This document shows positions 20,468-39,875 of a DNA stretch of 64,000 bases, piece by piece. Source of the DNA: Pseudomonadota bacterium (lineage in GTDB: Bacteria > Pseudomonadota > Gammaproteobacteria > Burkholderiales > UBA9220). The position numbers and the translations under genes were made by a program. Below the pieces are notes generated by a model. The model had not been told where the DNA came from and did no database searches. It saw only the letters and a list, made by a program, of their open reading frames with translations. Numbering within the stretch: position 1 is the stretch's first letter; each line of letters opens with the position of its first letter. Location: positions 840-64,839 of the forward strand of contig JAJZVC010000010.1 in the NCBI GenBank assembly GCA_021845865.1, given 5' to 3'.

Positions 20468-20472
20468 GGGGT

Positions 20473-22775: not shown

Positions 22776-22803
22776 GGTTCCCTGTCGCTTTTTTGAGTTT
22801 GAG

Positions 22804-23004
22804 TTATTTATTTGATGGCAATTCCGGTAACGCCATGGACGTGACATAACCCTGGTAATTCTGCTGGATGACGACGATCAGCTTGTTGATATAGGGCTGC
22901 CCCGTTTTGTCCTTCGCCAGCAGCGCCATGGCCACAAACATCACCACGATGACGTACTCGGTGTAAGATTGCCCGGAATTCCGCTTTATGTCCATCTTAA
23001 TCAT
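22804..23004 (-). CDS. Flp-like prepilin (second, divergent copy)
   Basis: 66 aa; KRNSGQSYTEYVIVVMFVAMALLA = G/xxxxEY Flp motif plus hydrophobic helix; ATGA overlap with upstream gene; about 49 percent G+C by hand count over 22801-23004. Confidence 0.6.
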   Translation of the reverse strand: MIKMDIKRNSGQSYTEYVIVVMFVAMALLAKDKTGQPYINKLIVVIQQNYQGYVTSMALPELPSNK

Positions 23005-23663: not shown

Positions 23664-24511
23664 GGGGCTTGCCGGTCCTTGGGGGCCTGGTCGGGGACGA
23701 TGCGGCCGTAATCCAGTCCCTTGAAGTCGGGGATCACGTCGCTCACGTAGCCCGTGAGCGTGCTGACCCAGCCGGAGAGGACGGTGGTCGGCACGAGATT
23801 GGCCACCTGGCAGAGCTCGGAGTGGGGGTCCTGCCCCGAGGTGCAGTGGTTGCCGCTGCCGGGGCCGGAAACCTGCCAAGCGTCGGTGATGATGACGTTG
23901 GGGCGGGGGATGATGGTGATGGGCGCCACGTAGAGGAGGGGTGGGATCATGCCGCTGCCGCCGGGACTACCTTGTTGGGCCACGTTGACGCTCATCGTGC
24001 TCGAGTACATGCCCTTGATGTTGACTTGGAACTGGCTTTTGTGCACGTCACCGAAGCTCTCGAGCCAGCCCGCGACGGTGTTGAACATGTTCACCAGGAA
24101 GTTGAAGACCGTGTTGTAGATGATCCCCGGCGATGTCTGGCCCTGGCCGCTTTCGGTCTGGGCGGTCACGTTGTCGTAGCTCGCCAGCATGGAGTTTCCA
24201 GAGGGGTCGGTCCACAGGGGATTGTACCGCGCGGGCGGGCCTGAACCGTCGGAGACGCTGAGGGGGGTGCCGGGAGCGGTGAAGATACGGTTGCGCACCT
24301 CGTTCTGCAGCGCCGTATTGCCCTTGGCGTTCGGTGTCCAGACGGTGCGCTCCCAGGCCACGTAGCGGCTGCCCTGGGCCGCGCTGTGGTTGATGTCCAT
24401 GTATTTTCCCAGGAGCGGGATGGCGAGGAAGATGGGGATGAGCACCAGGCAGACCACCAGGAATTCGGCCATGGCCTGCCCGTGCAGGGAAAAGGATGGC
24501 TTACGGTTCAT
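23660..24511 (-). CDS. TadE/TadF-like pseudopilin
   Basis: 283 aa from ATG 24509-24511; SLHGQAMAEFLVVCLVLIPIFL = G/xxxxEF motif plus hydrophobic helix. Confidence 0.7.
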   Translation of the reverse strand: MNRKPSFSLHGQAMAEFLVVCLVLIPIFLAIPLLGKYMDINHSAAQGSRYVAWERTVWTPNAKGNTALQNEVRNRIFTAPGTPLSVSDGSGPPARYNPLWTDPSGNSMLASYDNVTAQTESGQGQTSPGIIYNTVFNFLVNMFNTVAGWLESFGDVHKSQFQVNIKGMYSSTMSVNVAQQGSPGGSGMIPPLLYVAPITIIPRPNVIITDAWQVSGPGSGNHCTSGQDPHSELCQVANLVPTTVLSGWVSTLTGYVSDVIPDFKGLDYGRIVPDQAPKDRQAP

Positions 24512-26144
24512 AGGCGCTGAGTCCACTGGTGTTGGTGGAAGAGGGGGAGGGGTGGGATAGCAGTGACTTCCAGCCGAAGAGGGTTTCGTAGGCCTGGGAG
24601 CGCTCCTGGTCGGTGGTGTCGGCCAGGGTGGCCTCCCAGTAAGGGCTGAAGAGGTTGCTGTACTGCTTGTCGAGGGCGAAGTGCAGCTTGCCCTTGGAGA
24701 TGGCGTAGAGGGCGCTCGCATCGGGGGGCTCCTCAAGCCGCATGTTGTTCAGGCCGAAGGGTCCGAGCCCGTTGGCGGGCGCGCCAAAACCCGCCTGGGC
24801 GGCGGTGCGTGCCTTGGCCATGTCCTTGCTCACCACGATGGTGAGCTGGGGGCCATCGTTGTTTTGGGTGGATGGGTCACCGGGATTGCTGATGCCGTAA
24901 TAGGGCTTGAGGCCGATGGATGAGATGGATGCCTCGCCATACTCGCCCACCGCCATTTCGAATACATCCGCGGTCTCAGAGGGGGCGCCGCCATACGAGG
25001 AGGAATTGTTGTTGCTGTTGTAGATGTCCTCCCCCGGCGTGCCGTCACCGGGAGCATTGGCGTAGGCGGCGCCCCAGCCCAGGGGGACGGTGATGGACGG
25101 GTCGATGTTGAAGGGGAGGATGTTGCAGTAATCCCAGCCGCAGGGGTAGGGGATGCCGTGCCAGTGGCAGAATTGGACGCCGCAGATGACTTTCACCTTG
25201 ACGTGCACGGCGCCGTAGGCCCCCATGGTGTCCGCGGCGGACCAGGAGTACTGCTTGTTGACCTGTTTCAGTTCCGTGCCGCCGCGGCGGTTGACGCTTA
25301 GGTCGGCGCTGGCATCGATCTTCACCGGCAGGGGGATGTCGTTGATGATGTCCTGCGCCCACTTGGGGAGCCAGCTCAGGAGCCAGTCGGTGTTAAACAC
25401 CTCCCCGCCGAGCGTCCATCCACGGTTTTGGGCGAAGCTGTCGTTGGAGGCCCGGGTGACGTCGGCGAAGCGGCTCATTTCCGGCTGGCTGGCGTCGTAG
25501 CGGCTGGTGTATTTCCACCAGGCGCTGGCATCCTTGATGAGGATGCCGAGCCGGTAGAGATCCCCCGGGAGGTCGCTGCCGCTGCTCGGCCATTTCAAGA
25601 GTTTGGCATCCGGGTCGTTGAGGGCCAGTATCCCGGTCTGCACCGTGGAGCCGCTGTAGAGCAGGTTCTGGATGATGGCCTCCCCGTTGCCGTAGTGGAA
25701 CGTCTCTTCCAGGTCGGAGAGAGCACCCATCCAGTATCCCAGCACTTTGATGAGTGCAGGGAGGACGGAATCCACGAACACATCCTCGAAGCCGTTATAG
25801 GCACCGGCGAGGGCGTCGCAGACGGCGTCCAGGAAGGGGATGGGCTCGCACACGGCGGCGAGGTTGTCGATGACCTGGCCGGTGAAGCGGAACCAGGAGG
25901 CGAGGCCCACCATCTGGCTCACGGCGACCTGATTGGCGACCATGGCCCGATTCATGTAGGCGGTGAAGTTGTAATCCCGCGCGGCGATGGTGGCGACACT
26001 GTACGCCGTGGCGTCGGCGGTGTTTTGAAGCTCCATCTTGGAGCGGGTAAGCTGGGCGGTGTTGAAGAGGAGCAGCAATATAATGCCCACCACCATCAGG
26101 AGAATGGTGGCGAAGACCAGGGACTGGCCCCGTTGTCGAATCAC
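24501..26144 (-). CDS. TadG-like pilus-associated protein
   Basis: 547 aa, GTG start; N-terminus IRQRGQSLVFATILLMVVGIILLLLF typical of TadG/TadE-G-like N-terminal domain; large Cys-containing C-terminal region. Confidence 0.7.
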   Translation of the reverse strand: MIRQRGQSLVFATILLMVVGIILLLLFNTAQLTRSKMELQNTADATAYSVATIAARDYNFTAYMNRAMVANQVAVSQMVGLASWFRFTGQVIDNLAAVCEPIPFLDAVCDALAGAYNGFEDVFVDSVLPALIKVLGYWMGALSDLEETFHYGNGEAIIQNLLYSGSTVQTGILALNDPDAKLLKWPSSGSDLPGDLYRLGILIKDASAWWKYTSRYDASQPEMSRFADVTRASNDSFAQNRGWTLGGEVFNTDWLLSWLPKWAQDIINDIPLPVKIDASADLSVNRRGGTELKQVNKQYSWSAADTMGAYGAVHVKVKVICGVQFCHWHGIPYPCGWDYCNILPFNIDPSITVPLGWGAAYANAPGDGTPGEDIYNSNNNSSSYGGAPSETADVFEMAVGEYGEASISSIGLKPYYGISNPGDPSTQNNDGPQLTIVVSKDMAKARTAAQAGFGAPANGLGPFGLNNMRLEEPPDASALYAISKGKLHFALDKQYSNLFSPYWEATLADTTDQERSQAYETLFGWKSLLSHPSPSSTNTSGLSAYEP

Positions 26145-26201: not shown

Positions 26202-26480
26202 TTAGTTACCGCCCTGAGGGTTGCTGTAGGAGCCCAGACCCTTGTCTTTGTTGGCCTCGGTCTGACCTTGGTTGGCGGCTTCCTTCGCCTGCTGCTGGGC
26301 CGTCTGGCTGCTCTGGCCGGCCATTTCCTGGGACATGCCCGCCACGTCTTCGCGCACGGTCTTGCCGAAGTACATGTAAACGCCGATGGCGGCGACGGCC
26401 ACCAGGATGACGATGATGATGTATTCGGTCATGCCTTGGCCGAGTTGACGGCGGCGCGCAGGGAATCGGGTGGCTTTCAT
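26202..26480 (-). CDS. flp: Flp-family type IVc prepilin with extended Gln-rich C-terminal tail
   Basis: 92 aa; RRRQLGQGMTEYIIIVILVAVAAIGVY = G/xxxxEY motif plus helix; AAGAGGAGA SD upstream; AT-rich leader region 26481-26591. Confidence 0.75.
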   Translation of the reverse strand: MKATRFPARRRQLGQGMTEYIIIVILVAVAAIGVYMYFGKTVREDVAGMSQEMAGQSSQTAQQQAKEAANQGQTEANKDKGLGSYSNPQGGN

Positions 26481-28233: not shown

Positions 28234-29436
28234 ATGAGCGACACGGTTAAGAAACGCATCGTGCTCGGCATCACCGGCGGCATCGCGGCCTACAAGGCGG
28301 CGGAGCTGGCGCGGCTGATGATGAAGCGCGGCATGGACGTGCAGGTGGTTATGACCGATTCCGCCACCCGCTTCGTCGCCCCCCTGACTTTCCAGGCCCT
28401 CACCGGCAAGCCGGTGTTCACCGGCCTGTGGGACGACCGCATCGACAACGGCATGGCCCACGTGGAATTCACCCGGGGCGCCGCCGCGGTGGTGGTGGCG
28501 CCGGCCTCCGCCGACTTCCTGGCCAAGCTGGCCCAGGGGCGGGCGGACGATTTGCTCTCCACCCTGTGCCTGGCCCGGGACTGTCCCCTGATGGTGGCGC
28601 CGGCCATGAACCGGCAGATGTGGGACAACCCGGCCACCAAGCGCAACGTGGCCCAGCTCAAGCGCGATGGCGTGGCGGTGTTCGGCCCCGCCAGCGGCGA
28701 GCAGGCCTGCGGCGAGGAAGGTTTCGGCCGCATGGTGGAGCCGGAGGAACTGCTGGCGGACGTCGAGGGCTATTTCCAGCCCAAGCTGCTGGCGGGGCGC
28801 AAGGTGCTGATCACCGCCGGGCCGACCTTCGAGGCCATCGACGCGGTGCGCGGCATCACCAACCGCAGCTCGGGCAAGATGGGCTATGCCGTGGCCCGGG
28901 CCGCCCTCGACGCCGGGGCGGAGGTGACCCTGATTTCCGGTCCCACCTGCCTCGCCCCGCCGGCGGCGGCGAAGCTGGTGAAGGCGGTGAGCGCCCAGGA
29001 CATGCTGACGGCGGTGAACGACCTGGTGGGGGAGACGGACATCTTCATCGGCGTGGCGGCCGTGGCCGACTATTACGTGCTCAATCCCAGCGAACAGAAG
29101 ATCAAGAAGGACGCCCACATCCTGACCCTGGAGCTGGCGCCCAATCCCGATATCCTGGCCAACGTGGTGAACCTGCCCAACCCGCCCTTCTGCGTCGGCT
29201 TCGCGGCGGAAAGCGAGAGCCTGTTCGAGTTCGCCGAGATCAAGCGCCACCGCAAGAAGCTGCCGCTGCTGGCGGGCAACCTGGTGGAAGCCATCGACAG
29301 CGACGAATCGGAACTCACCCTGTTCGACGACGAAGGCGCCCATCCTTTGCCGCGGGGGCCGAAAATCCAGCACGCCCGCAGCCTGATCGCGCATATCGCC
29401 AAGCTCTATGGCCGCCGGCCGGCGGCCGGAGAGTGA
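28234..29436 (+). CDS. coaBC: Bifunctional phosphopantothenoylcysteine decarboxylase/synthetase
   Basis: 400 aa, KRIVLGITGGIAAYKAAEL...ITNRSSGKMG..., full-length Dfp/CoaBC. Confidence 0.95.
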   Translation: MSDTVKKRIVLGITGGIAAYKAAELARLMMKRGMDVQVVMTDSATRFVAPLTFQALTGKPVFTGLWDDRIDNGMAHVEFTRGAAAVVVAPASADFLAKLAQGRADDLLSTLCLARDCPLMVAPAMNRQMWDNPATKRNVAQLKRDGVAVFGPASGEQACGEEGFGRMVEPEELLADVEGYFQPKLLAGRKVLITAGPTFEAIDAVRGITNRSSGKMGYAVARAALDAGAEVTLISGPTCLAPPAAAKLVKAVSAQDMLTAVNDLVGETDIFIGVAAVADYYVLNPSEQKIKKDAHILTLELAPNPDILANVVNLPNPPFCVGFAAESESLFEFAEIKRHRKKLPLLAGNLVEAIDSDESELTLFDDEGAHPLPRGPKIQHARSLIAHIAKLYGRRPAAGE

Positions 29437-29577
29437 GCCGGATGCCTTAAAGGCTGTACCGCCAAGGCGCCAGGAAATAAAATAGAGCGTTTTGCGGCCG
29501 CCTTTTGCTCAGCGAGGCCAGCCCGGTTTCATGGCCGGGGCCACATTTAACTGCACACTAAAACTAGAGGTTGTATC

Positions 29578-31293
29578 TTGGATAAGAACGATTTGATCAT
29601 CCGCGTGGCGGGCGAAGGCGGGGAGGGCATCATTTCCACCGGCGACTTCATCACCCAAGCCTGCGCCCGTGCCGGTCTGGAGGTCTACACCTTCAAGACC
29701 TTCCCCGCCGAAATCAAGGGCGGCTACGCCATGTACCAAACCCGGGCCAGCGCTCAGCCCCTGTACTGCCAGGGGGATACTTTCGACGTGCTGTGCGCCT
29801 TCAACGGCGAAGCCTACGATTTGAACCGCAGCCGCCTGCTGCCCGGTACCGCCTTCGTCTACGACGGCCCCGGCGGCGACTTCGAGCCGGAGATTCCCGC
29901 CGGGGTGCACGGCTATGCCATCCCCATGACCAAGACCGCCAAGGAGATGGGCAACCCCAAGGCGAAGAACATGGTGGCCCTGGGCGCCCTGTCCCAGCTC
30001 TTCAACATTCCCGAGCAGGCCCTGCGGGAGGTCATCACCGCCAAGTTCACCAAGAAGGGCACCACGGTGGTGGAGGGCAACCTCAACGCCTTCGCCAAGG
30101 GCCGCGAACTGGCCGCCGCCCTGGCCAAGACCGATCCGTGGAAGCTGGAAGCGCCGGAAAGCAAGCGCGACGTGGTGGTGATGTCGGGCAACGACGCCGT
30201 CGGCCTGGGCGCCCTGATCGCCGGCCTGGACTTCTTCTCCGCCTACCCCATCACCCCGGCCACGGAAATCGCCCGCTACGTGGCGCGCCACCTGCCCAAG
30301 CGGGGCGGCACCCTGATCCAGGCCGAGGACGAGATCGCCTCCGCCTCCCAGGTGGTGGGCGCCTCCTTCGCCGGCAAGAAGGCCATGACCGCCACTTCCG
30401 GCCCCGGCCTGGCCCTGATGGGGGAAATGCTCGGCATGTCCTTCATGAGCGAAACTCCCTGCGTCATCGTCGACGTGCAGCGGGGCGGTCCCTCCACCGG
30501 CCTGCCCACCAAGCACGAGCAGTCCGACCTGTTCCTGGCGATTCACGGCTCCCACGGCGACTGCGGCCGCATCGTGCTGTCGGTGGAAGACGTCTCCGAC
30601 TGCATTTCCCTCACCGTGGAAGCCTTCAACCTGGCGGAAAAGTACCAGTGTCCGGTGCTCCTGCTGTCCGACGGCTCCCTGGCCTTCTCCACCCAGACCG
30701 TGGCCTACCCCGACCCCGCCAGCTTCAAGATCGTCTCCCGCAAGCGCTGGGACGGCCACGGCGAATACAAGCGCTACGCCATTACCGACGACTTCATCTC
30801 CCCCATGGCCGACCCTGGCACCCCCGGCGGGATGCACATCGCTACCGGCCTGGAGCACGACGAGACCGGCAACCCCAACTACAGCCCGGCCAACCACGAG
30901 GCCATGCAGGCCAAGCGCTTCCGCAAGCTGGATGGCGTGGTGAATGACTTTCCCCCGGCGGAGGTGGACGGCGACGGCGAGGCCGAACTGGGGATCATCG
31001 CCTGGGGCAGCACCATCGGCGTGGCGCGGGAAGCCATCGCCCGCCTGCGTGCCGAGGGCGTGTCGGTGAAGGGCTTCTATCCCAAGCTGCTGTGGCCCAT
31101 GCCGGTGGAGCAGTTCGAGGCCTTCGGCGCTTCCTGCCGCCGGCTGATGGTGGCGGAGGTGAACTTCCTCGGCCAGCTGGCCCACTTCATCCGCGCCGAG
31201 ACATCCCTGCGCCCCGAGTCCTATACCATCTGCGGCGGCCTGCCCTTCACGCCCGCCATGATCGTCGCCAAAGTCAAGGAGATGCTGGCATGA
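29578..31293 (+). CDS. korA: 2-oxoacid (2-oxoglutarate-type):ferredoxin oxidoreductase alpha subunit
   Basis: 571 aa (TTG start); IIRVAGEGGEGIISTGDFI... gamma-alpha fused KorA layout. Confidence 0.88.
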   Translation: MDKNDLIIRVAGEGGEGIISTGDFITQACARAGLEVYTFKTFPAEIKGGYAMYQTRASAQPLYCQGDTFDVLCAFNGEAYDLNRSRLLPGTAFVYDGPGGDFEPEIPAGVHGYAIPMTKTAKEMGNPKAKNMVALGALSQLFNIPEQALREVITAKFTKKGTTVVEGNLNAFAKGRELAAALAKTDPWKLEAPESKRDVVVMSGNDAVGLGALIAGLDFFSAYPITPATEIARYVARHLPKRGGTLIQAEDEIASASQVVGASFAGKKAMTATSGPGLALMGEMLGMSFMSETPCVIVDVQRGGPSTGLPTKHEQSDLFLAIHGSHGDCGRIVLSVEDVSDCISLTVEAFNLAEKYQCPVLLLSDGSLAFSTQTVAYPDPASFKIVSRKRWDGHGEYKRYAITDDFISPMADPGTPGGMHIATGLEHDETGNPNYSPANHEAMQAKRFRKLDGVVNDFPPAEVDGDGEAELGIIAWGSTIGVAREAIARLRAEGVSVKGFYPKLLWPMPVEQFEAFGASCRRLMVAEVNFLGQLAHFIRAETSLRPESYTICGGLPFTPAMIVAKVKEMLA

Positions 31294-32177
31294 GCTGCGC
31301 CCAGACCCACCTGCACCAAGTCGCCCTCGAAACCAAGGACTACAAGACCGACGCCAAGCCCTTCTGGTGCCCCGGCTGCGGCGACCACGGCGTGCTTACC
31401 GCCATGTACAAGGCCCTGGCCGAGATCGGCGTGGACCCCAACTACCTGGTGAACATTTCCGGCATCGGCTGCTCTTCCCGCCTGCCCTACTTCGTGCGCT
31501 CCTACAAGATGCACACCCTCCACGGCCGCGCGGGCCCCGTGGCCACCGGCGTGCAGCTGGCCCGGCCCGACCTGGCCATCCTGGTCAACGGCGGCGACGG
31601 CGACGGCTTTTCCATCGGCGGCGGCCACATGCCCCACCTGGCGCGGAAGAACGTCAACATGACCTACGTGCTGATGGACAACCGCATCTACGGCCTGACC
31701 AAGGGCCAGGTGTCCCCCACCTCCCAGCGCAAGATGAAGGCCTACACCACCCCCTACGGCGGGGTGGAGGAGCCCATGGACCCGGTGCTGTACATGCTGA
31801 CCTACGGCGCCAGCTTCGTCGCCCAGTCCCTGGCCACCAACGTGAAGATGACCGCCCAGCTGATCAAGGACGGCATGGAGCACAAGGGCTTCGCCTTCAT
31901 CAGCGTGCTGAGCCAGTGCCCCACCTTCAACGTCATCGATGACGCCAAGTACTTCAAGGGCGCCGCCGAGGAGGTGTCGCCGGATCACGACGTGACCAGC
32001 GTCGACGCCGCCATGCACGTGGTGAACGTGGGCCACGAGACCGGCCGCATTCCCGTGGGCCTGCTGTACCGCCAGGAACGCCCGACCCTGGACGAATACA
32101 TGGCGGACCTGGTGAAGCAGGCCGGCGGCGGTCCGGATTACGACCTGCGCAAGATCATCGACCTCGCCCGCCCATGA
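31290..32177 (+). CDS. korB: 2-oxoacid:ferredoxin oxidoreductase beta subunit (TPP-binding)
   Basis: 295 aa from ATG 31290 (ATGA overlap with korA); WCPGCGDHG and TPP motif GGDGDGFSIGGGH...NRIYGLTKGQ. Confidence 0.9.
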   Translation: MSCAQTHLHQVALETKDYKTDAKPFWCPGCGDHGVLTAMYKALAEIGVDPNYLVNISGIGCSSRLPYFVRSYKMHTLHGRAGPVATGVQLARPDLAILVNGGDGDGFSIGGGHMPHLARKNVNMTYVLMDNRIYGLTKGQVSPTSQRKMKAYTTPYGGVEEPMDPVLYMLTYGASFVAQSLATNVKMTAQLIKDGMEHKGFAFISVLSQCPTFNVIDDAKYFKGAAEEVSPDHDVTSVDAAMHVVNVGHETGRIPVGLLYRQERPTLDEYMADLVKQAGGGPDYDLRKIIDLARP

Positions 32178-32809
32178 CGGAGAACGCTGCCAGCGGCCCG
32201 GCCGTGGAGCTGACCATCAACGGCCAGGCGGTTCGCGCCGAACGGCACATGACCGTGGTGGAGGCGGCCTGGGCCAACGGCGTGCCCCGGGTTTCCGGGG
32301 TGGGCTGCCTGGAAGGGGTGTGCGGTTCCTGCCGCATCCTGCTGCGGCGCGGCAAGGAGGTGGGGGTCGCCTTGGCCTGCGAAACCCTGGTGGAGCCGGG
32401 GATCGAGGTGCTGTTCCTGCCGCCCCCCGCCGCGCCGCGCCACCAGTACGAGCTGACGGACCTCAGCGACGGCTGGGATATTCAGGCCCGGTTCCAGGAA
32501 ATCTTTCCCGAGGCCGCCCGCTGCCGCCATTGCCACGGCTGCGTCCGTTCCTGCCCCAAGGGCATCGTGGTGGAGGAAGGGGTGGCCTTGGCCGTGGCGG
32601 GCCATTTCCGCGAAGCCGGAGAAGCCTTCTTCGAGTGCGTGATGTGCGAGCTGTGCGACACGGCCTGTCCCGAGCAGATCGCTCCTGCCCACGTGGGATT
32701 GTTCTGCCGCCGCATCACGGCCTTTTTCCACCTGCGGCCGCCCAACTTGATCAACCGCCTGGAGGAAATCCGCCAGGAGCCTCCCCAGGACGGGAAGGAG
32801 AAGCCATGA
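32174..32809 (+). CDS. SdhB/FrdB-like iron-sulfur protein (2Fe-2S plus two 4Fe-4S motifs)
   Basis: 211 aa; CLEGVCGSC...C (plant-type 2Fe-2S), CRHCHGCVRSCP and CVMCELCDTACP; ATGA overlaps on both sides. Confidence 0.75.
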   Translation: MTENAASGPAVELTINGQAVRAERHMTVVEAAWANGVPRVSGVGCLEGVCGSCRILLRRGKEVGVALACETLVEPGIEVLFLPPPAAPRHQYELTDLSDGWDIQARFQEIFPEAARCRHCHGCVRSCPKGIVVEEGVALAVAGHFREAGEAFFECVMCELCDTACPEQIAPAHVGLFCRRITAFFHLRPPNLINRLEEIRQEPPQDGKEKP

Positions 32810-34407
32810 CCAGCAGCTTGTCTTACCAGGCTGCCCTGGCGGCGTACCGCGCCGGCGCCGAGCCGTGGCCGCTGCCGGAACCCATGGACCCCGACCGGCT
32901 GCTGTCCGCCTACCATCCGGACTATCTCCCGGGCAGCATGACCACCTTGGCGGTGGGGCCCAACGCCGGCGAGCAGTGCCAGCGGGAGCTGGCGGAACTG
33001 CTCCAGGCGGAGGCGTATATCGACGAAGTGGACCTGGCCGGAGTGCCGGTGACGGACACCGACGTGCTGGTGATCGGCGGCGGCGGCGCGGGCTGCGCCG
33101 CCGCCTTGGCCGCCGCCGAGCATGGCGCCCGGGTGTTGCTGGTGACCAAGCTGCGCCTCGGCGACAGCAACACGGTGATGGCCGAAGGCGGCATCCAGGC
33201 CGCCATCGAGCCTGGCGACAGCGCCCAGAAGCACATGCAGGACACCCTGCGGGCGGGTCATCATGCCGGCGATCCGTCCCTGGTGGCGGCTTTGGTCGGC
33301 GACGGTCCGGACGTGATCCGCTGGCTGATCCGCCAGGGAATGCAGTTCGACCAGACCCCTTCCGGCGATCTTCACACCCGGCCCGCCGGCGGCACCAGCG
33401 CCGCCCGGGTGGTGCACTGCCGCGACTACACCGGCCTGGAGATGATGCGGGTGCTGCGGGAGGCGGTGACCCAGCATCGCGGGGTCGAAGTGTGGGAGCA
33501 GCACTCGGCGGTGGAGCTGCTCTCCAATGAAAGCGGCCAGAAATGCGTGGGCGCCGTGCTGGCTTCCCGCGCCGACCAGACTCTGCGCATCGTCCGCGCC
33601 CGGGCGGTAATCCTGGCCACCGGCGGCCTGGGCCGCCTGCACCTGAACGGCTTCCCCACCTCCAATCACCTGGGCGCCACCGGCGACGGCCTGGTGCTGG
33701 CCTACCGCATGGGGGCGAAGCTGTGCGAGCTGGACTCCTTCCAGTATCACCCCACCGGGCTGGTCAACCCGCCATTGCTGTCCGGCAAGTTGGTCACCGA
33801 GGGCATCCGGGCCGCCGGCGCCCTGCTGCTGAACGCCCAGGGCAAGCGCTTCATTGACGAATTGCAGCCCCGGGACATCGTCAGCGCCGCCATCATTCGT
33901 GAATGCCAGGAGGGCCGGGGCATCCATCCGGCCTCCGGCGGGGTCGGCGTGTGGCTCGATACCGCTGGCCTGGAGCGCCGCCAGCCGGGCCTGCTGGGGC
34001 AGCAGTTCCCCAAGCTGCTGGCCCGTGCCCGCATGGCCGGCATCGATCCGCGCCAGGAGCCGATCCTGGTTTATCCCACGCTGCATTATCAGAACGGCGG
34101 CGCGGTGATCGACGCCCACGGCGCCACCACCGTTCCCGGCCTGTACGCGGCGGGAGAGGTGGCCGGCGGCATCCACGGCCGCAACCGCATCATGGGCAAC
34201 GCCCTGCTGGAGATCATCGGTTTCGGCCGCCGGGCCGGCGCGGCGGCGGCTTTGTCCGGCCACGACCGGGGGCCGAAGAAAATCACCCTGGAGCATGTCA
34301 ACCGCGCCCGCCGCGCGCTGGCCCTGGCGGGCCTTCCTCTGGCGCGGCGCGCGCCCCTGTTGTTTCCCGCCTACACGGCGCCGGGGAAAGATCTATGGAA
34401 ATCTTGA
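32806..34407 (+). CDS. SdhA/FrdA/NadB-family FAD flavoprotein
   Basis: 533 aa from ATG 32806; VLVIGGGGAGCAAALAAAEHG, FQYHPTG, GLYAAGEVAGGIHGRNRIMGNAL. Confidence 0.8.
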   Translation: MTSSLSYQAALAAYRAGAEPWPLPEPMDPDRLLSAYHPDYLPGSMTTLAVGPNAGEQCQRELAELLQAEAYIDEVDLAGVPVTDTDVLVIGGGGAGCAAALAAAEHGARVLLVTKLRLGDSNTVMAEGGIQAAIEPGDSAQKHMQDTLRAGHHAGDPSLVAALVGDGPDVIRWLIRQGMQFDQTPSGDLHTRPAGGTSAARVVHCRDYTGLEMMRVLREAVTQHRGVEVWEQHSAVELLSNESGQKCVGAVLASRADQTLRIVRARAVILATGGLGRLHLNGFPTSNHLGATGDGLVLAYRMGAKLCELDSFQYHPTGLVNPPLLSGKLVTEGIRAAGALLLNAQGKRFIDELQPRDIVSAAIIRECQEGRGIHPASGGVGVWLDTAGLERRQPGLLGQQFPKLLARARMAGIDPRQEPILVYPTLHYQNGGAVIDAHGATTVPGLYAAGEVAGGIHGRNRIMGNALLEIIGFGRRAGAAAALSGHDRGPKKITLEHVNRARRALALAGLPLARRAPLLFPAYTAPGKDLWKS

Positions 34408-35639
34408 ACGCGAACCTGCTCCATCCCCGCTGGCGAGTGGGAGAGCATCTGCAACGCTGGCGGGATGCCGGCGGCGGCGAGGCCTTGGCTATCGGCGCCG
34501 GGAATCCCGCCGCCATCCTGGCGGCGGTTAAGGAAGCCGACCTGCGTGGCCTGGGCGGCAGCGGCTTTCCGGTTTGGCGCAAGTGGGAGGCGGTGGCCCA
34601 TGCTCCTGCCGACAAGGACAAATACCTGGTGTGCAACGGCAACGAGGACGAGCCGGGAACCTACAAGGACCGCCTGCTGCTGGAGGAAACTCCCCATCAG
34701 GTGATCGAGGGCGCCGTGCTGGCGGCCCTGGCGGTGGGCGCCAACCGGGTGGTGTTCTACGTCAATCCGGACCTCAAGCGTTCCCTGGCGGCCCTGGATC
34801 TGGCCCTGGCCCAGTGGCAGGGGTCCGCCATGCAGGAGCAGGCGTCGGCGGCCCTTGGGCGCCCGATGGCGCTGGAACTGGTGCCCAGCTCCGGCCACTA
34901 CATCGGCGGCGAGGAAACGGCGGCCCTGGAATGGATCGAAGGGAAGTTCCCTTTTCCGCGGGGCAAGCCGCCCTATCCGGCGGAGTACGGCGTTCACGGT
35001 TGCCCTACCCTGGTCAACAACGTGGAAACCTTGGCCAACGTGCCGGCCATCGTGCGTCACGGGGCGGAGTGGTTCCGCGCCCAGGGGACGGGCGGCGCGG
35101 GCGGCACCAAGCTCTATTCCCTCAGCGGCGACGTGCTGCACCCGGGCGTGTACGAACTGCCCATGGGCACCACCCTGCGGGACATGATCTTCGTCCACGG
35201 CGGCGGCTTGCTTTCCGGCAAGCCCATCAAGGCGGTGTTCACCGGCGGGCCGTCCAACACCCTGCTGACGCCGGACGACCTGGACGTGGCCCTGGACTTC
35301 GACTCCTTGCGGGAACGGGGCGCCGCCCTCGGCACCGGCGCCATGATCGTGGTGTCGGAAGGGACCGGCATCGTCAAGCGGGTGGCCGAATACGTGCGCT
35401 TTTTCGCCCATTCCTCCTGCGGCCAGTGCCCGTCCTGCAAAACCGGCACCGCCACCATCAGCCGCCTGCTGGACCGCATCGATACCGGGCAGGGGACGGC
35501 GGCGGACATGGCGACCCTGGAAACGCTCTGCGCCATGCTGCCGGGCAGCGGCCGCTGCCACCTGGTGAACGGCGTGGTGCAGCTGTTGGAAAGCTCCTTC
35601 CGCCACTTCCGCCAGGAATACCGGCAGGCGCTGAAGTGA
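34395..35639 (+). CDS. NuoF/HoxF-like NAD(H)-, FMN- and 4Fe-4S-binding protein
   Basis: 414 aa from ATG 34395 (13-nt overlap with upstream gene); [41 protein letters not shown]. Confidence 0.8.
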
Positions 35640-36820: not shown

Positions 36821-37909
36821 ATGAAAGAACAAGAAACCCTGGCTGAACATCTTCGCCGGCAAGGCATCAGCCGCCGCTCCTTTCTCAAGTTTTGCGTGGC
36901 CACCGCCTCCCTCCTCGGCCTGCCGCCGGGGATGGCGCCCCTGATGGCCGAAACCCTGGGCAAGGTCAGGCGCCCGTCGGTGATCTGGCTCTCCTTCCAG
37001 GAATGCACCGGCTGTACCGAATCCCTGACCCGCTCCCACTCCCCCACCCTGGAAAGCCTGCTGTTCGATTTCATTTCCCTCGACTATCACCACACCCTCC
37101 AGGCCGCCTCGGGCGAAGCGGCGGAGCGGGCGCGGGAAGAGGCGATGAAGGCCAATTACGGCAAGTACCTGGTGCTGGTGGACGGCTCGGTCCCCCTGGG
37201 AGAGGGCGGGGCCTATTCCACCATCGCCGGCCGCACCAACCTGGAAATGCTCGAAGAGACCGCCAAGGGGGCGGCGGCCCTGATTGCCATCGGCACCTGT
37301 TCCTCCTACGGCGGCCTGCCCTACGCCCATCCCAACCCGACGGGGGCGGTTCCGGTGTCGGCCATCGTCAAGGACAAGCCCGTCGTCAACGTTCCCGGCT
37401 GCCCGCCGATCCCCCTCGCGATCACCGGCGTGGTGGCCCATTACCTGATGTTCGGCGCCCTGCCGGAACTGGACGAGAAGGGACGCCCCCTTTCCATTTA
37501 CGGCGAGACCATCCACGACCGCTGCTACCGCCGCCCCTTCTACGACCAGGGAAAGTTCGCCAAGACCTTCGACGACCGGGGCGCCCGCGCCGGCTGGTGC
37601 CTGTACGAGCTGGGGTGCAAGGGGCCCACGACCCACAACGCTTGCGCCACCACCAAGTGGAACGGCGGCACCAGCTTTCCTATCGAATCCGGCCACGGCT
37701 GCCTCGGCTGCTCCGAGCCCGACTTTTGGGACGCGGGCAGTTTCTACCAAGCGCTGTCCACCCCGCTCTCGTCCCTCGACAAGGCAGCGGGGGTGGCGGC
37801 GGGCGCGGGGGTGGCGGCGGGCGCCGCCATTGCCGTCCACAACCGTGCCGCCAAGCGCGCGGCGAAGGCCGGCCATCAGGCCGTGACGGTCAACGACCTG
37901 GAGAAGTGA
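36821..37909 (+). CDS. hynS: [NiFe] hydrogenase small subunit (Isp-type, group 1e-like)
   Basis: Tat signal SRRSFLKFC; Fe-S cluster Cys pattern (ECTGCTES..., GTCSSYGG, PGCPP, ...GCLGCSEP). Confidence 0.9.
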   Translation: MKEQETLAEHLRRQGISRRSFLKFCVATASLLGLPPGMAPLMAETLGKVRRPSVIWLSFQECTGCTESLTRSHSPTLESLLFDFISLDYHHTLQAASGEAAERAREEAMKANYGKYLVLVDGSVPLGEGGAYSTIAGRTNLEMLEETAKGAAALIAIGTCSSYGGLPYAHPNPTGAVPVSAIVKDKPVVNVPGCPPIPLAITGVVAHYLMFGALPELDEKGRPLSIYGETIHDRCYRRPFYDQGKFAKTFDDRGARAGWCLYELGCKGPTTHNACATTKWNGGTSFPIESGHGCLGCSEPDFWDAGSFYQALSTPLSSLDKAAGVAAGAGVAAGAAIAVHNRAAKRAAKAGHQAVTVNDLEK

Positions 37910-38569
37910 ATGAGCGACATGGAATTGCTGCTATGGGCGCGGGGGCCGGGACTGCAAGGAGCGGTGGCGGTTTTCGTCGCCGGCATGGCGTTGCGCCTGA
38001 TCGAAATCTACAGCCTGGGGCGCAAACGGGACCTTTCCCCGGCGCGGCCGGGAAACGGCGGTGCCGGCTGGGCGACCATCATCACCCGCAGCATTCCCCA
38101 CAAGGAATTGCTGCGAACCACCTATCTGACCTATATCCTGGGTTATACCTTCCACATCGGCCTGTTCGTCACCCTGCTGCTGTTCGCGCCCCATATTCAG
38201 CTGTTTCGCGGCGTCCTGGGTTTCGGTTGGCCTTCCCTGCCCTCGCCGGTGGTGGATGCCGTGGCCCTGGTGTCCATCGCGGCCTTGTTTGGCATGCTGG
38301 CTTACCGCCTTTATCACCCGGTAAAGCGTTTCCTTACCACCTTCGGCGACCACGCGGCCTGGCTGCTGACCATGCTGCCACTGCTGACCGGCTATCTGGC
38401 TTTCCATCATCTGCTGTTGCCCTATACCCTGATGCTGGCGGTGCACATCCTGTCGGTGGAACTGCTTCTGGTCTTCATGCCCTTCACCAAGCTGGTCCAC
38501 GTGGCGACGATTTTCATTTCCCGCTGGTACAACGGCGACATGCTGGGGCATAAGGGGGCGCGGCTATGA
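37910..38569 (+). CDS. isp1: Isp1, NarI/DsrM-like membrane b-type cytochrome subunit
   Basis: 219-aa polytopic membrane protein encoded directly between small and large hydrogenase subunit genes. Confidence 0.75.
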   Translation: MSDMELLLWARGPGLQGAVAVFVAGMALRLIEIYSLGRKRDLSPARPGNGGAGWATIITRSIPHKELLRTTYLTYILGYTFHIGLFVTLLLFAPHIQLFRGVLGFGWPSLPSPVVDAVALVSIAALFGMLAYRLYHPVKRFLTTFGDHAAWLLTMLPLLTGYLAFHHLLLPYTLMLAVHILSVELLLVFMPFTKLVHVATIFISRWYNGDMLGHKGARL

Positions 38570-38606
38570 ACGGGTGCTTGCGGCACGAGGAAAGAAAGGC
38601 GGAGCC

Positions 38607-39875
38607 ATGAGCGCATCGTTCGAGCGTGGCGTGAATTCCTTCCGGGAGGTGATGGATGCGCCCATCGCCAGTTTTTTCTCCAGTTGCGTCCATTGCGGCC
38701 TGTGCGCCGATGCCTGTCTGTTTTACACGGAAACGGGCGATCCGAAATACACGCCGATTTACAAGTTGGAGCCTCTGAAGCGCCTGTGGCGCCAGGAATA
38801 TACCTTGTTGGGCAAGCTGGCCTCCCTGGCGGGGCTGTCCAAGCCCATCACGGATGCCGAGCTGGCGGAGTGGAGCGAACTGGTCTACGACAGCTGCACC
38901 CTCTGCGGGCGCTGCACGGTGGCTTGCCCGGTGGGCAACGACATCACCTACATGGTGCGCAAGATGCGCGAAGGCATGGCGGCAGCCGGTCATGCGCCGG
39001 AAGGGGTGATCGAAGCCACCCGCAAGACCATCGAGCAGGGCAGCCCCATGGGGATTCAGCTCAAGGCGTTTTTGGCGCAGGTAAAGGGGCAGGAGGAGGA
39101 AACCGGCATCGAGATTCCGCTGGACAAGGCGGGAGTGGATTATCTGGTCATCATGTCGTCCATGGAGATTCTCGGCTATCCCGAATACCTCGGTTCCCTG
39201 GCGCGCATCTTCAAGCAGGCCGGCCTGACCTGGACGGTGTCTTCCGAGGCCTTCGAGGCCACCAACAGCGGCATCCAGATCGGGGTGTCGGACATCGCGC
39301 GGGAAATCGTCCTGCGTGTCGTCAACGCGGCGGAGAAGCTGGGGGTGAAGTACGTCATCAGTCCCGAGTGCGGCCACGCTTTCACCGCCCTGCGTTGGGA
39401 AGGGCCGAACCTGATCGGCCGCCCCTACAAATTCGAGGTGGTGCACGTCTTGGAACTGCTCGATCAGTTGCGTCGCGCCGGCAAGCTCAAGACGGTGGGC
39501 AAGACCGATGAACCCCTTACGCTCCACGATCCCTGCCAGATCGTGCGTCGCGGCGGCGTGGTGGCCGAACCGCGGAATTTGATCCGGATGGTGGCGTCGG
39601 ATTTCCGCGAGATGGAAGATTCCGGCATGTACAACTGGTGCTGCGGCGGCGGTGGCGGCGTATCCGCCAACCATCGGGCGGAAGAATTGCGCTTCACCGT
39701 CTTCAAGCGCAAGAAACGCCAGATCGAGGGCACGGGAGCGGTCACCATGGTCACCGCCTGCGCCAACTGCCGCAATGTGCTGGAAGAAGGCCTGGAGCGC
39801 TACCACATGGATACCAAGATGATCGGTTTGACCGAACTGGTCGCCGAACACCTGAAAGAGGATGAACAGGCATGA
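38607..39875 (+). CDS. isp2: Isp2, HdrD/DsrK-like Fe-S protein with CCG domains
   Basis: CVHCGLCADAC and CTLCGRCTVACP ferredoxin motifs; CCG-type Cys clusters (PECGHAF, DPCQIV, NWCCGGGGG); ATG 38607 preferred to track start. Confidence 0.8.
   Translation: MSASFERGVNSFREVMDAPIASFFSSCVHCGLCADACLFYTETGDPKYTPIYKLEPLKRLWRQEYTLLGKLASLAGLSKPITDAELAEWSELVYDSCTLCGRCTVACPVGNDITYMVRKMREGMAAAGHAPEGVIEATRKTIEQGSPMGIQLKAFLAQVKGQEEETGIEIPLDKAGVDYLVIMSSMEILGYPEYLGSLARIFKQAGLTWTVSSEAFEATNSGIQIGVSDIAREIVLRVVNAAEKLGVKYVISPECGHAFTALRWEGPNLIGRPYKFEVVHVLELLDQLRRAGKLKTVGKTDEPLTLHDPCQIVRRGGVVAEPRNLIRMVASDFREMEDSGMYNWCCGGGGGVSANHRAEELRFTVFKRKKRQIEGTGAVTMVTACANCRNVLEEGLERYHMDTKMIGLTELVAEHLKEDEQA

Follow-up and report, generated by a model that had tools for sequence, protein, structure and literature searches.

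The five overlapping genes at positions 29578-35639 of the DNA stretch analysed here (the window, 64,000 nt in full) quite probably encode two enzymes of the reductive TCA cycle, namely an OGOR (KorAB) and a soluble fumarate reductase that is probably driven by NADH. Judged from sequence, the three genes downstream of korAB are best read as an NADH-input variant of soluble fumarate reductase, co-expressed with the OGOR. The preliminary description of this DNA had entertained a single five-gene enzyme; a better description is two enzymes, KorAB and a reductase of three subunits. All five open reading frames are present on the + strand, with the sizes that had been given for them:

29437..29577, + strand: presumed promoter and 5′ UTR, the 141-nt intergenic region between coaBC and korA
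29578..31293, + strand: korA, OGOR alpha subunit with fused gamma/alpha domains (571 aa, TTG start; POR, POR_N and PFOR_II)
31290..32177, + strand: korB, OGOR beta subunit, TPP- and [4Fe-4S]-binding (295 aa; TPP_enzyme_C and PFO_beta_C)
32174..32809, + strand: Fe-S subunit of the proposed soluble fumarate reductase (211 aa; Pfam Fer2_4 and Fer4 dicluster)
32806..34407, + strand: predicted catalytic flavoprotein of the FrdA/SdhA/TfrA/NadB superfamily (533 aa; FAD_binding_2 only)
34395..35639, + strand: NuoF-like NADH-binding FMN/[4Fe-4S] subunit, the proposed input module (414 aa; Complex1_51K, SLBB and NADH_4Fe-4S)

The genes are chained by three ATGA junctions (31290-31293, 32174-32177 and 32806-32809) and, between the flavoprotein and NuoF-like genes, by the 13-nt overlap ATGGAAATCTTGA (34395-34407), just as previously reported; the motifs quoted in the preliminary description were all found in the translations, and its domain identities were confirmed by Pfam. 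The operon is flanked by coaBC and dut, and the 141-nt region is the sole sizeable gap ahead of the five overlapping genes, with an AGAGG Shine-Dalgarno-like motif 8 nt 5′ of the korA TTG start. Since no sigma-70 consensus was found in this region, we only infer that it contains the operon promoter. In agreement with the claimed absence of a membrane anchor and of a ferredoxin, no SdhCD/FrdCD, NuoE or ferredoxin gene lies within the operon, and none of the five proteins contains a transmembrane-like hydrophobic stretch (maximal 19-residue Kyte-Doolittle value 1.72).

Both OGOR subunits exceed the cut-offs of their family models, korA with 637.6 bits against TIGR03710 (cut-off 482.75) and korB with 276.8 bits against TIGR02177 (cut-off 261.9). 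In phmmer searches, KorA matched the Magnetococcus marinus OGOR alpha chain (6N2N_A) over its full length (E 1.8e-280) and KorB matched 6N2N_B (E 1.3e-116); the TTG start of korA is supported, because the M. marinus alpha chain aligns end to end from residue 1. The cysteines of the KorB motifs WCPGCG, GIGCSSR and SQCPTFN and its GDGDG...N TPP motif align with 6N2N_B, and subunit lengths, fused domain order, TPP motif and the ligands of the single [4Fe-4S] cluster are shared with the M. marinus enzyme (PDB 6N2N/6N2O). These alignments make KorAB a close orthologue, over its full length, of the reverse-TCA OGOR crystallised from M. marinus. In strain MC-1 this OGOR likewise has an FeS-flavoprotein pair belonging to this family in its gene cluster (48% and 30% identity), but the pair is separated from korAB by sucCD and has no NuoF-like gene next to it, whereas in the window korB overlaps the Fe-S gene and the NuoF-like gene ends the operon.

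The flavoprotein carries the complete set of residues expected of a fumarate reductase. Its H315, T331/E332/R335, R356, H427 and R461 correspond in alignments to the NadB/SdhA catalytic residues, so that all the fumarate-binding His/Arg residues earlier proposed for checking are conserved, and the fumarate-binding and catalytic residues are invariant in 43 homologues. Asn122 occupies the position of the flavinylated His of covalent-FAD enzymes, and the FAD is predicted to be bound non-covalently; Ala194, an invariant Ala, stands at the position of NadB Glu121. An intact fumarate site without the covalent-FAD His and the NadB Glu upholds the soluble fumarate-reductase reading that had been offered as one of two. 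The protein shares its catalytic residues and its FAD-binding and capping domains with complex II (SdhABCD/FrdABCD), but differs in lacking the covalent-FAD His and Succ_DH_flav_C, which Pfam did not detect, and anchor subunits are missing from the operon. It has a family-specific 85-aa N-terminal extension, lacks the C-terminal helical domain and falls below every NCBIfam cut-off, including those of the NadB, TfrA and SdhA models, its top match being the TfrA model with 346 bits (cut-off 718). Its AlphaFold model is poor (pLDDT 66.8) and added nothing beyond the sequence.

In the Fe-S subunit, C45, C50, C53 and C69 are the [2Fe-2S] ligands, and C117/120/123/127 and C155/158/161/165 form two [4Fe-4S] sets; across alignment A3, which spans betaproteobacteria to Asgard archaea, 12 of 12 cysteines are invariant. 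The SdhB/FrdB-like cluster layout described earlier therefore stands as regards a [2Fe-2S] domain ahead of two cubane-type motifs, and fails in that there are two full 4Fe-4S sites instead of a 4Fe-4S/3Fe-4S arrangement: SdhB of complex II has a 3Fe-4S site by the quinone pocket, whereas here the second cubane motif reads CxxCxxCxxxCP in full (4Fe-4S). Similarity to SdhB is distant, SdhB chains being the closest solved structures with a weak match (E 1.6e-6). A natural fusion of the Fe-S protein with the flavoprotein was also found (P0242).

The NuoF-like protein scores 379 bits, below the NuoF equivalog cut-off of 558.65. Its GGxGFP, NEDEPGT and GGEETA motifs and the CxxCxxC...C ligands (C342, C345, C348 and C388) align with HydB/Nqo1, and the FMN, NADH and N3-cluster motifs are intact; the Glu of NEDEPGT presumably favours NADH over NADPH. 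It shares the three-domain FMN/NADH/N3 [4Fe-4S] core with NuoF, HoxF, FdsB and Bfu-type HydB/NfnB (E about 1e-78 to 1e-89), but it is the core with a single cluster only, without the N- and C-terminal Fe-S domains of Bfu-type enzymes or other ferredoxin-like domains, and without a NuoE gene or NuoE-like domain. Its conserved neighbour is the fumarate-reductase pair and not NuoE/NuoG, a hydrogenase or a formate dehydrogenase. To our knowledge, every NuoF works with a NuoE-type partner; docking of the NuoF-like protein directly on the Fe-S subunit would have no precedent, because no such partner is encoded.

In the scheme that follows, we infer how the subunits assemble, how the clusters are ordered, that NADH is the donor, which way the flux runs, the argument from ubiquinone and where the ferredoxin comes from. 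The operon enzymes would catalyse steps one and three of the sequence fumarate to succinate to succinyl-CoA to 2-oxoglutarate, and SucCD would perform the middle step; sucCD is not in the window, and SucCD is encoded elsewhere in the genome of this organism. NADH would reduce the FMN of the NuoF-like subunit, whose single [4Fe-4S] cluster would pass the electrons on one by one to the two [4Fe-4S] and the [2Fe-2S] clusters of the Fe-S subunit, and from there they would reach the non-covalent FAD of the flavoprotein, where fumarate would be reduced to succinate at the canonical His/Arg/His/Arg site with Arg356 as proton donor. KorAB, as (alpha-beta)2, would then carboxylate succinyl-CoA to 2-oxoglutarate with reduced ferredoxin from another source, such as Rnf. 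Beta- and gammaproteobacteria of this kind mostly use ubiquinone, and ubiquinol cannot drive fumarate reduction (+24 kJ/mol, against -58 kJ/mol with NADH; Table 1, PMC13147460); adding an NADH module of the NuoF type to an ancient soluble core of Fe-S protein and flavoprotein would get round this. In Magnetococcales and Bathyarchaeia the pair comes without a NuoF, so ferredoxin could conceivably be the electron donor of the trio as well.

No published description of the FeS-Flav-NuoF trio was found, in keeping with the earlier remark that the combination was not recognised as a described enzyme. A close soluble counterpart, compared by its published description, is FrdABCDE of Hydrogenobacter thermophilus (Miura et al., 2008; described after PMC13147460). 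That enzyme is cytoplasmic, anchor-less and NADH-dependent, combines an FrdA-type flavoprotein with an Fe-S subunit and works in a reductive TCA cycle, all of which it would share with the reductase proposed here, but it is made of five subunits. The NADH-input subunits of FrdABCDE are not NuoF-like but Hdr-like and GltD-like; in the window, the one candidate for such an input module is a single NuoF-like FMN/[4Fe-4S] protein. Methanogen TfrAB and the TfrAB-like/Flx-Hdr clusters also combine a soluble two-subunit core with a non-quinone donor, and the Flx-Hdr versions of tubeworm symbionts and P. thermosuccinogenes, for which bifurcation has been proposed, cluster with OGOR genes as well. Unlike TfrAB, the window has no CCG (HdrB-like) thiol-oxidising domain in its Fe-S subunit; its flavoprotein lacks the TfrA C-terminal domain, carries the N-terminal extension and scores far below the TfrA cut-off, and its operon contains no Hdr or Flx genes.

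The module had more than 580 matches in species-representative genomes and is widespread in iron-, sulfur- and nitrogen-oxidising bacteria; the five-gene arrangement is not due to chance, because the gene order recurs across dozens of genomes, among them Ferrigenium straubiae (L057). In 76 of 80 loci the Fe-S gene immediately precedes the flavoprotein gene (median gap 2 nt), and in 73 of 80 the NuoF-like gene comes next after the flavoprotein gene (median gap 9 nt); the whole trio is contiguous in about 73 of the 80 genomes examined, and identities co-vary (r = 0.91 for flavoprotein and Fe-S subunit, r = 0.81 for flavoprotein and NuoF-like protein). The proposed mapping of co-occurrence revealed co-conservation with korAB in other genomes: of 63 determinable loci, 44 have korAB upstream of the trio in the same orientation, 7 have it downstream, where it belongs to another KorAB lineage (about 31% identity), 2 have it divergent, and 10 lack an OFOR within 8 kb. 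Since it is also found without korAB, FeS-Flav-NuoF is a module in its own right; it stands alone in, for example, Nitrosomonas mobilis and Nitrotoga, which have a 5.4-kb trio-bearing block in common at 93% nucleotide identity. The FeS-Flav pair is older than the NuoF-bearing trio and occurs without NuoF in Magnetococcales (PFOR-like ... FeS-Flav-sucC-sucD-korA-korB), in Bathyarchaeia (malic enzyme-fumarase alpha/beta-FeS-Flav, divergent from fdx-korAB) and in Asgard archaea, right after HdrC/HdrB-like and Mvh hydrogenase genes. Gammaproteobacterial contexts include trio-sucCD, fumA with mdh, and gltA; a gamma-carbonic-anhydrase-like gene directly precedes korA in 13 loci, and pntAB is near the operon in 11. 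This placement among TCA genes in distant lineages, together with the orthology of KorAB to a reverse-TCA OGOR, favours the reductive-TCA reading.

A very improbable reading is that the flavoprotein acts on another substrate, as an enzyme resembling L-aspartate oxidase or as another enoate/dicarboxylate reductase, beside which korAB lies incidentally. Several homologues are named 'L-aspartate oxidase' in JGI annotation, E. coli NadB ranks among the top matches by sequence in the PDB and the NadB model TIGR00551 is the second-best NCBIfam match, but its 339.8 bits are below the 452.75 cut-off, the amino-group-binding Glu121 is replaced by the invariant Ala, and NadB has no Fe-S or NuoF partner, both of which are strictly co-conserved here. 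The neighbours are fumarase, malic enzyme, sucCD, mdh and OGOR genes and not nadA/nadC, and assignment as L-aspartate oxidase was rejected. Unlikely too, to a lesser degree, is a bifurcating fumarate reductase, possibly in one supercomplex with KorAB, that splits NADH electrons so that an exergonic branch to fumarate (+30 mV) drives an endergonic one to ferredoxin or the KorB cluster for reductive carboxylation of succinyl-CoA (about -500 mV); a free low-potential donor would therefore not be needed. A built-in, possibly bifurcating electron module for KorAB was the second reading of the preliminary description, and it found no specific support here. The missing ferredoxin gene, the korB/Fe-S gene ATGA overlap (median korB-FeS gap 14 nt over 45 loci) and the tie of pair or trio to OGOR genes, which recurs in at least four independent arrangements with two KorAB lineages in bacteria and archaea, would fit such coupling. 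The top PDB match of the NuoF-like protein is HydB of a NiFe hydrogenase (7T2R), which we take to be electron-bifurcating, followed by NfnB and HydB chains, but ordinary NuoF/Nqo1 score about the same and the Bfu-type domains and a NuoE-like partner are lacking. By our own calculation from standard potentials, the reaction of 2 NADH with fumarate, succinyl-CoA and CO2 yields about -33 kJ/mol, and analogous schemes have been put forward, one for tubeworm symbionts (Flx-Hdr with TfrAB and KorABCD; PMC6315080) and one for P. thermosuccinogenes (its 'succinate operon'; PMC7282089). Against it, the trio does without a nearby OFOR in the 10 loci and moves alone between nitrifiers, sucCD splits pair from korAB in Magnetococcales, and two loci (L018 and L027) have korAB about 90% identical to that of the window but a trio only about 75% identical, so the two parts can differ in history. 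KorA and KorB have the lengths of the M. marinus enzyme, which was crystallised alone with alpha and beta chains only, and carry no extra docking domain; moreover, a close relative, Ferrigenium straubiae, has two Rnf operons for ferredoxin reduction (bioRxiv 10.64898/2026.01.22.701106).

We also regard as rather improbable an oxidative or redox-balancing role, in which KorAB would oxidise 2-oxoglutarate, replacing or supplementing 2-oxoglutarate dehydrogenase, and the Fe-S subunit would hand the low-potential electrons to fumarate (through the flavoprotein), to NAD+ (through the NuoF-like protein) or to both, giving a net 2-oxoglutarate:fumarate/NAD+ oxidoreductase. The three-subunit, NADP+-reducing KorABC of Azoarcus evansii follows a comparable logic. 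OGORs are reversible, the operon lacks a ferredoxin, the Fe-S subunit is the sole plausible one-electron carrier encoded beside KorB, non-covalent FAD fits a fumarate-reducing sink and many obligate autotrophs lack 2-oxoglutarate dehydrogenase (PMC5178258). These organisms fix CO2 via the Calvin cycle, and at least Sideroxydans ES-1 possesses complex II and a full oxidative TCA cycle; both leave room for such a role, but the ES-1 cycle already includes 2-oxoglutarate dehydrogenase. The occurrence of the trio without korAB also speaks against this role. The gamma-carbonic-anhydrase-like and pntAB neighbours and the Magnetococcales rTCA clusters point instead to carboxylation, as in the preferred reductive reading, and in Ferrigenium straubiae korAB transcripts are high in autotrophic and lower in heterotrophic growth (bioRxiv 10.64898/2026.01.22.701106).

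The korAB genes open a five-gene cluster whose coordinates agree exactly with those of a preliminary description made from the sequence alone; together with the flanking genes they are as follows.

28234-29436: coaBC (dfp), flanking the five-gene cluster
29578-31293, + strand: korA, 571 aa, TTG start
31290-32177, + strand: korB, 295 aa
32174-32809, + strand: Fe-S protein gene, 211 aa
32806-34407, + strand: flavoprotein gene, 533 aa
34395-35639, + strand: NuoF-like gene, 414 aa
35704-36153: dut, flanking the five-gene cluster

The three ATGA overlaps and the 13-nt overlap ATGGAAATCTTGA that were said to chain these genes are directly seen in the nucleotide sequence, the domain content first assigned to their products was borne out by Pfam and NCBIfam, and the reported lack of a membrane anchor was confirmed, as no anchor gene is present and no membrane-spanning stretch was found in any of the five proteins. 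An exported or periplasmic enzyme was considered and rejected, since the five proteins contain no strongly hydrophobic stretch resembling a signal peptide or membrane helix; a twin-arginine motif, judged by eye, is absent from all three N-termini of the trio formed by the Fe-S protein, the flavoprotein and the NuoF-like protein. No sigma-70-like promoter was found at the operon, and terminator-like sites are fewer than in shuffled sequences. Exact copies of the locus are present in several metagenome assemblies, and among the fetched loci the coaBC/dut flanks are common only to exact copies (L001-L006) and to a 94%-identical relative (L007). This limited distribution, together with the higher GC content of the cluster (68.3% vs 63.8% in the remainder of the window), suggests that the five-gene unit was inserted between coaBC and dut. 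The nearest species-representative genome among the matches listed is a Gallionellaceae MAG with a 94%-identical flavoprotein.

KorA contains fused POR(gamma)-POR_N-PFOR_II domains (Pfam), and both KorA (TIGR03710, 637.6 bits, cut-off 482.75) and KorB (TIGR02177, 276.8 bits, cut-off 261.9) score above the family cut-offs. They align end to end with the 2-oxoglutarate:ferredoxin oxidoreductase (OGOR) of Magnetococcus marinus MC-1 (crystal structure 6N2N; E 1.8e-280 and 1.3e-116, respectively), the GDGDG...N TPP motif and four Cys of KorB aligning with 6N2N_B. Pfam detected no Fer4 domain in KorB, and no delta (ferredoxin) domain or subunit is found. Because the alignment is full-length, the TPP motif and the ligands of the one [4Fe-4S] cluster are kept and extra domains are missing, KorAB can be placed among the ordinary two-subunit OGORs of the reverse-TCA type; its 2-oxoglutarate specificity and CO2 fixation are predicted from full-length orthology to the M. 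marinus enzyme.

The flavoprotein carries an 85-aa extension at its N-terminus and FAD_binding_2 as its only Pfam domain; Succ_DH_flav_C (PF02910) gave no match, and the matches to all models stop near residue 485-497. Its best-scoring NCBIfam models are those of TfrA, NadB and SdhA/FrdA, none of which reaches its cut-off (346.2 bits vs 718 for the TfrA model NF004900; 339.8 bits vs 452.75 for the NadB model TIGR00551). The conserved fumarate-binding residues His315, Arg356, His427 and Arg461 are present, as is the Thr331/Glu332/Arg335 relay. All of these align with catalytic residues of NadB/SdhA (E. coli NadB, M. smegmatis Sdh) and form a set that is invariant in 43 homologues, with Arg356 at the proton donor position and Thr-Glu-x-x-Arg as the proton relay. 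In place of E. coli NadB Glu121, to which the aspartate amino group binds, the window flavoprotein has the invariant Ala194, and the active site appears to be of the fumarate-reductase type and not that of an aspartate oxidase. L-aspartate oxidase was rejected as a candidate, given the score under the cut-off, the missing Glu121 and an unlike gene context, so that the FrdA-like identity initially proposed stands against NadB. At the position of the covalent-FAD His of M. smegmatis Sdh (GKAHTVMAEGG) the window flavoprotein has Asn122 (GDSNTVMAEGG); Asn is found here in nearly all related-clade sequences inspected, and His in none of the inspected sequences with the N-terminal extension. Since Asn122 replaces the flavinylated His, non-covalent FAD is predicted, as is typical of fumarate-reducing rather than succinate-oxidising enzymes. 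An AlphaFold2 model built on the 43-sequence alignment was of low confidence (pLDDT 66.8), and a Foldseek search with this model returned FrdA/SdhA/NadB at a TM of about 0.4 and an rmsd of about 15 Å, which contributes nothing further to the sequence evidence.

The Fe-S protein possesses one plant-type 2Fe-2S and two complete CxxCxxCxxxCP motifs, and its 12 Cys are invariant from betaproteobacteria through Asgard archaea. The SdhB/FrdB cluster layout ascribed to it holds in part: the 2Fe-2S motif and a weak match (E 1.6e-6) to SdhB chains, its only solved relatives by sequence, agree with that layout, but the completeness of both cubane motifs does not. A CCG (HdrB-like) domain is absent by Pfam. 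When 1.84 billion representatives were searched for flavoprotein homologues, proteins with the N-terminal 'HPDY' extension fell into very few clusters at 50% identity, one of which is a natural fusion of Fe-S protein and flavoprotein (P0242, 727 aa). In this fusion, Fer4 motifs occupy residues 44-162 and FAD_binding_2 residues 293-674, the chain being 47% identical to the window flavoprotein. As this Rosetta-stone fusion joins both parts in one chain, it supports a physical complex of the putative Fe-S subunit with the flavoprotein.

The NuoF-like protein comprises Complex1_51K, SLBB and NADH_4Fe-4S domains (Pfam), with intact FMN, NADH and N3-cluster motifs (cysteines C342, C345, C348 and C388) that align with HydB. 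It matches NuoF/Nqo1, HoxF, HydB and NfnB about equally (E about 1e-78 to 1e-89) and falls below the cut-offs of TIGR01959 (379.1 vs 558.65 bits), NF010120 (312.8 vs 389) and NF008436 (290.3 vs 749). With its 414 aa it corresponds to a single-cluster core, and the matched HydB/NfnB chains of 584-630 aa align with it only in their central part. A NuoE gene was found neither in the operon nor in its conserved surroundings. That the protein might be a spare complex I subunit was rejected: it reaches none of the NuoF cut-offs, neither NuoE nor NuoG is encoded beside it, and it is strictly conserved together with the flavoprotein.

Scanning one genome per species revealed at least 580 loci with a relative of the flavoprotein, including those of Gallionellaceae, Ferrigenium, Nitrosomonas mobilis, Nitrotoga, Sedimenticola, giant sulfur bacteria and tubeworm symbionts, of which the best 80 were analysed. 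The Fe-S gene lies directly 5' of the flavoprotein gene in 76/80 loci (median gap 2 nt), and the NuoF-like gene directly 3' in 73/80 (median gap 9 nt); four of the seven loci without NuoF are at contig ends. Sequence identity co-varies with that of the flavoprotein most closely for the Fe-S protein (r = 0.91), followed by NuoF (r = 0.81) and KorA (r = 0.68). The conservation of gene order extends to korAB, which is linked to the trio in 53 of the 63 determinable loci; chance adjacency was rejected on this count and because several arrangements and lineages are involved.

Position of korAB relative to the trio in the best 80 loci
Directly upstream, same strand: 44 loci (Gallionellaceae, Sulfuricellaceae, Rhodocyclales)
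Downstream: 7 loci (a different KorAB lineage, about 31% identity; Sedimenticola, Escarpia symbionts)
Divergent: 2 loci
Absent within the flanks: 10 loci
Undeterminable, short contigs: 17 loci

L018 and L027 combine a korAB about 90% identical to that of the window with a trio of about 75% identity, which indicates that these two modules have been exchanged. Nitrosomonas mobilis and Nitrotoga sp. BS possess the trio alone, without korAB, and the trio is therefore a transferable unit in its own right. A 5.4-kb block comprising the trio and two upstream genes is 93% identical at the nucleotide level between N. mobilis and Candidatus Nitrotoga sp. BS (L070:5476-10899, L076:5476-10899), with a GC content of 44% vs about 50% in the unrelated flanks; this indicates recent horizontal transfer between nitrifier genera. 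Thioploca has the flavoprotein gene alone, with no adjoining Fe-S or NuoF-like gene (L080:7992-9581, L086:1733-3292), and Halobeggiatoa has no Fe-S gene upstream, its contig ending just past the flavoprotein gene (L075:2022-3596); Thiomargarita (L082) retains the trio. TCA-related genes also adjoin the trio: sucCD at its 3' side (L071), fumA and mdh (L067) and gltA (L077). pntAB is nearby in 11 loci, and a gamma-carbonic-anhydrase-like gene lies directly 5' of korA in 13 Gallionella-type loci. The neighbourhood of the latter type, seen in the Ferrigenium straubiae locus L057 and 12 others (e.g. L057:3957-4496), as well as at L025:3039-4460, contains pntAB, a succinate-semialdehyde-dehydrogenase-like ALDH, an amidase, the gamma-carbonic-anhydrase-like gene, korAB, the trio and AmmeMemoRadiSam genes; of this set, the window has only korAB and the trio. 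In Sedimenticola, tubeworm-symbiont and related loci, a gene for a protein of ~824 aa comes after the second-type korAB that lies 3' of the trio (L077:14759-17218, with equivalents in L066, L073, L078, L079 and L083); this protein ends in a ferredoxin-like CxxCxxC...CP domain and is a possible dedicated redox partner.

The Fe-S/flavoprotein pair (FeS-Flav) extends well beyond the trio.

Gene orders around the FeS-Flav pair in other lineages
M. marinus MC-1 and another Magnetococcales genome: PFOR-like ... FeS-Flav-sucC-sucD-korA-korB-pentapeptide-SdhE-adk-H+-PPase, no NuoF
Bathyarchaeia: malic enzyme-fumarase alpha-fumarase beta-FeS-Flav, divergent from ferredoxin-korA-korB
Asgard archaeon: mvhDGA-hycI-hdrC-like-hdrB-like, then the FeS-Flav pair, near an OFOR

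The Magnetococcales cluster covers three consecutive rTCA steps. From these gene orders it follows that the pair is predicted to be a conserved soluble fumarate-reductase core, whose electron-input module appears to differ by lineage, being NuoF-like in beta-/gammaproteobacteria and Hdr/Mvh in Asgard archaea; in Magnetococcales and Bathyarchaeia the input is possibly ferredoxin. The link of the pair with OGOR is ancient and recurrent. An SdhE/Sdh5 covalent-flavinylation factor is encoded two genes 3' of korB in Magnetococcales-type clusters (L087:13262-13561, L090:13447-13725) and in a related contig labelled Nitrospirae (L089:8241-8522). In the M. marinus flavoprotein the flavinylation site is occupied by Asn and not by His despite the nearby SdhE gene, which may serve a canonical SdhA elsewhere.

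In the proposed reaction sequence, NADH would reduce the FMN of the NuoF-like subunit, from which electrons would pass to its [4Fe-4S] cluster, then through two [4Fe-4S] and the [2Fe-2S] of the Fe-S subunit to the non-covalent FAD, where fumarate would be reduced to succinate; this cluster order is based on analogy with SdhB, in which the 2Fe-2S stands beside the FAD. SucCD, presumably encoded elsewhere in the source genome, would convert succinate to succinyl-CoA, which KorAB would carboxylate to 2-oxoglutarate with reduced ferredoxin. Activity, assembly and direction are inferred from sequence and context. Several observations support a reductive direction for this putative branch: KorAB has an rTCA enzyme as its orthologue, the same FeS-Flav pair belongs to the rTCA cluster of Magnetococcales, carbonic-anhydrase-like and pntAB genes adjoin, and in F. 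straubiae, whose locus shares the five-gene order, korAB is abundantly transcribed during autotrophic growth and less so during heterotrophic growth (bioRxiv 10.64898/2026.01.22.701106). The same study reports two Rnf operons as a source of reduced ferredoxin and is silent on the three genes that follow korAB. As fumarate reduction is endergonic with ubiquinol (+24 kJ/mol) and strongly exergonic with NADH (-58 kJ/mol; Table 1 of PMC13147460), ubiquinone-reliant proteobacteria would need a non-quinol donor for a fumarate-reducing branch.

The absence of a ferredoxin gene from the operon, the translational coupling of the genes in the window, the recurrent linkage to OGOR, the favourable overall energetics and analogous Flx-Hdr proposals (PMC6315080; PMC7282089) could also be read as signs of electron bifurcation by the trio or of its supercomplex with KorAB. 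We consider this unlikely, since the trio is a unit of its own, sucCD stands between the pair and korAB in Magnetococcales, the histories of korAB and trio are separate, KorAB has no extra docking domain, and the NuoF-like protein is devoid of the accessory domains and the partner of all known NuoF-type bifurcating enzymes. Quite unlikely is the specific version in which KorAB and the trio form one soluble NADH-bifurcating machine, the reduction of fumarate to succinate driving the second electron pair uphill onto the KorB cluster or a ferredoxin. If true, such a machine would catalyze 2 NADH + fumarate + succinyl-CoA + CO2 -> 2 NAD+ + succinate + 2-oxoglutarate + CoA, energetically coupling two reductive-TCA steps without pmf-driven ferredoxin reduction, and would represent both a new NuoF-based bifurcation architecture lacking NuoE and a new low-potential electron route in microaerophilic lithoautotrophs. 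An oxidative or redox-sink role conflicts with the expression data and the neighbouring genes and is very unlikely, whereas a different, aspartate oxidase-like substrate, at odds with both active-site and context evidence, is extremely improbable.

A soluble, NADH-driven fumarate reductase of this composition would differ from the systems already described. SdhA/FrdA enzymes with covalent FAD carry 8-alpha-N3-histidyl FAD on the His of an S-H-T motif, where the window flavoprotein has Asn122, and they possess the Succ_DH_flav_C helical domain and membrane anchors, both missing here. TfrAB uses a CCG-domain thiol module, and the C-terminal CCG (HdrB-like) domains of TfrB have no counterpart in the window Fe-S subunit. 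Bfu-type HydB has extra N- and C-terminal Fe-S domains and a HydC/NuoE-like subunit, which the window NuoF-like protein lacks, and NuoF of complex I is paired with NuoE, whereas the window protein stays below the equivalog cut-offs and has no NuoE. The Hydrogenobacter thermophilus FrdABCDE enzyme is set apart by its description, having five subunits, with FrdC/D/E as its specific NADH-input subunits, in contrast to three genes after korAB of which the third is NuoF-like. A 2026 genome survey (PMC13147460) lists H. thermophilus FrdABCDE, Klebsiella and yeast enzymes as known soluble NADH-dependent fumarate reductases, none of which is known to include a NuoF-like subunit; it also draws attention to unexplained soluble fumarate reductases of 'incomplete' A/AB composition ('AB-only') that are encoded beside rTCA genes and whose characterisation it urges. 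For tubeworm symbionts, a dimeric korAB cluster is mentioned by Rubin-Blum et al., who do not refer to the trio, and papers on the Gallionellaceae pangenome and the ES-1/ES-2 genomes mention neither OGOR nor fumarate reductase. Our full-text literature search turned up neither a NuoF-linked fumarate reductase nor the five-gene unit, in keeping with the preliminary description, which had not recognised the combination as a described enzyme. Since the known NADH-dependent fumarate reductases lack NuoF and no description was found, the novelty would thus lie in the NuoF-linked trio, KorAB itself being seemingly ordinary.

In bacteria that have ubiquinone only, reductive or branched TCA cycles are weakest at the step of fumarate reduction, which is a problem in several rTCA organisms as well. 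The locus offers a concrete candidate, in which an ancient soluble FeS-Flav core, found in Magnetococcales, Bathyarchaeia, Asgard archaea and many proteobacteria, may have acquired a NuoF-like NADH input in beta-/gammaproteobacteria, usually in an operon with a CO2-fixing OGOR. If confirmed, it would be a fourth architecture of NADH-dependent fumarate reductase in which NuoF works without NuoE, and carbon-flux models of Calvin-cycle lithoautotrophs would change to include extra CO2 fixation via a reductive branch or roTCA; bifurcation, if true, would account for the low-potential electron supply in such organisms. Iron oxidisers with relatives of these genes (Gallionellaceae, Ferrigenium) are environmentally dominant.

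Elsewhere in the window, a Tad/Flp-type pilus gene set (15432-26144, minus strand) lies upstream of the five-gene cluster and bears no relation to it; the set includes a TadG-like 547-aa protein, and a small Flp-like ORF of 92 aa is found at 26202-26480. Right after dut, an Isp-type [NiFe] hydrogenase operon (36821-41641) encodes a Tat-signal small subunit, a cytochrome-b-like membrane protein (219 aa), an HdrD-like CCG/Fe-S protein (about 422 aa) and the large subunit (589 aa).
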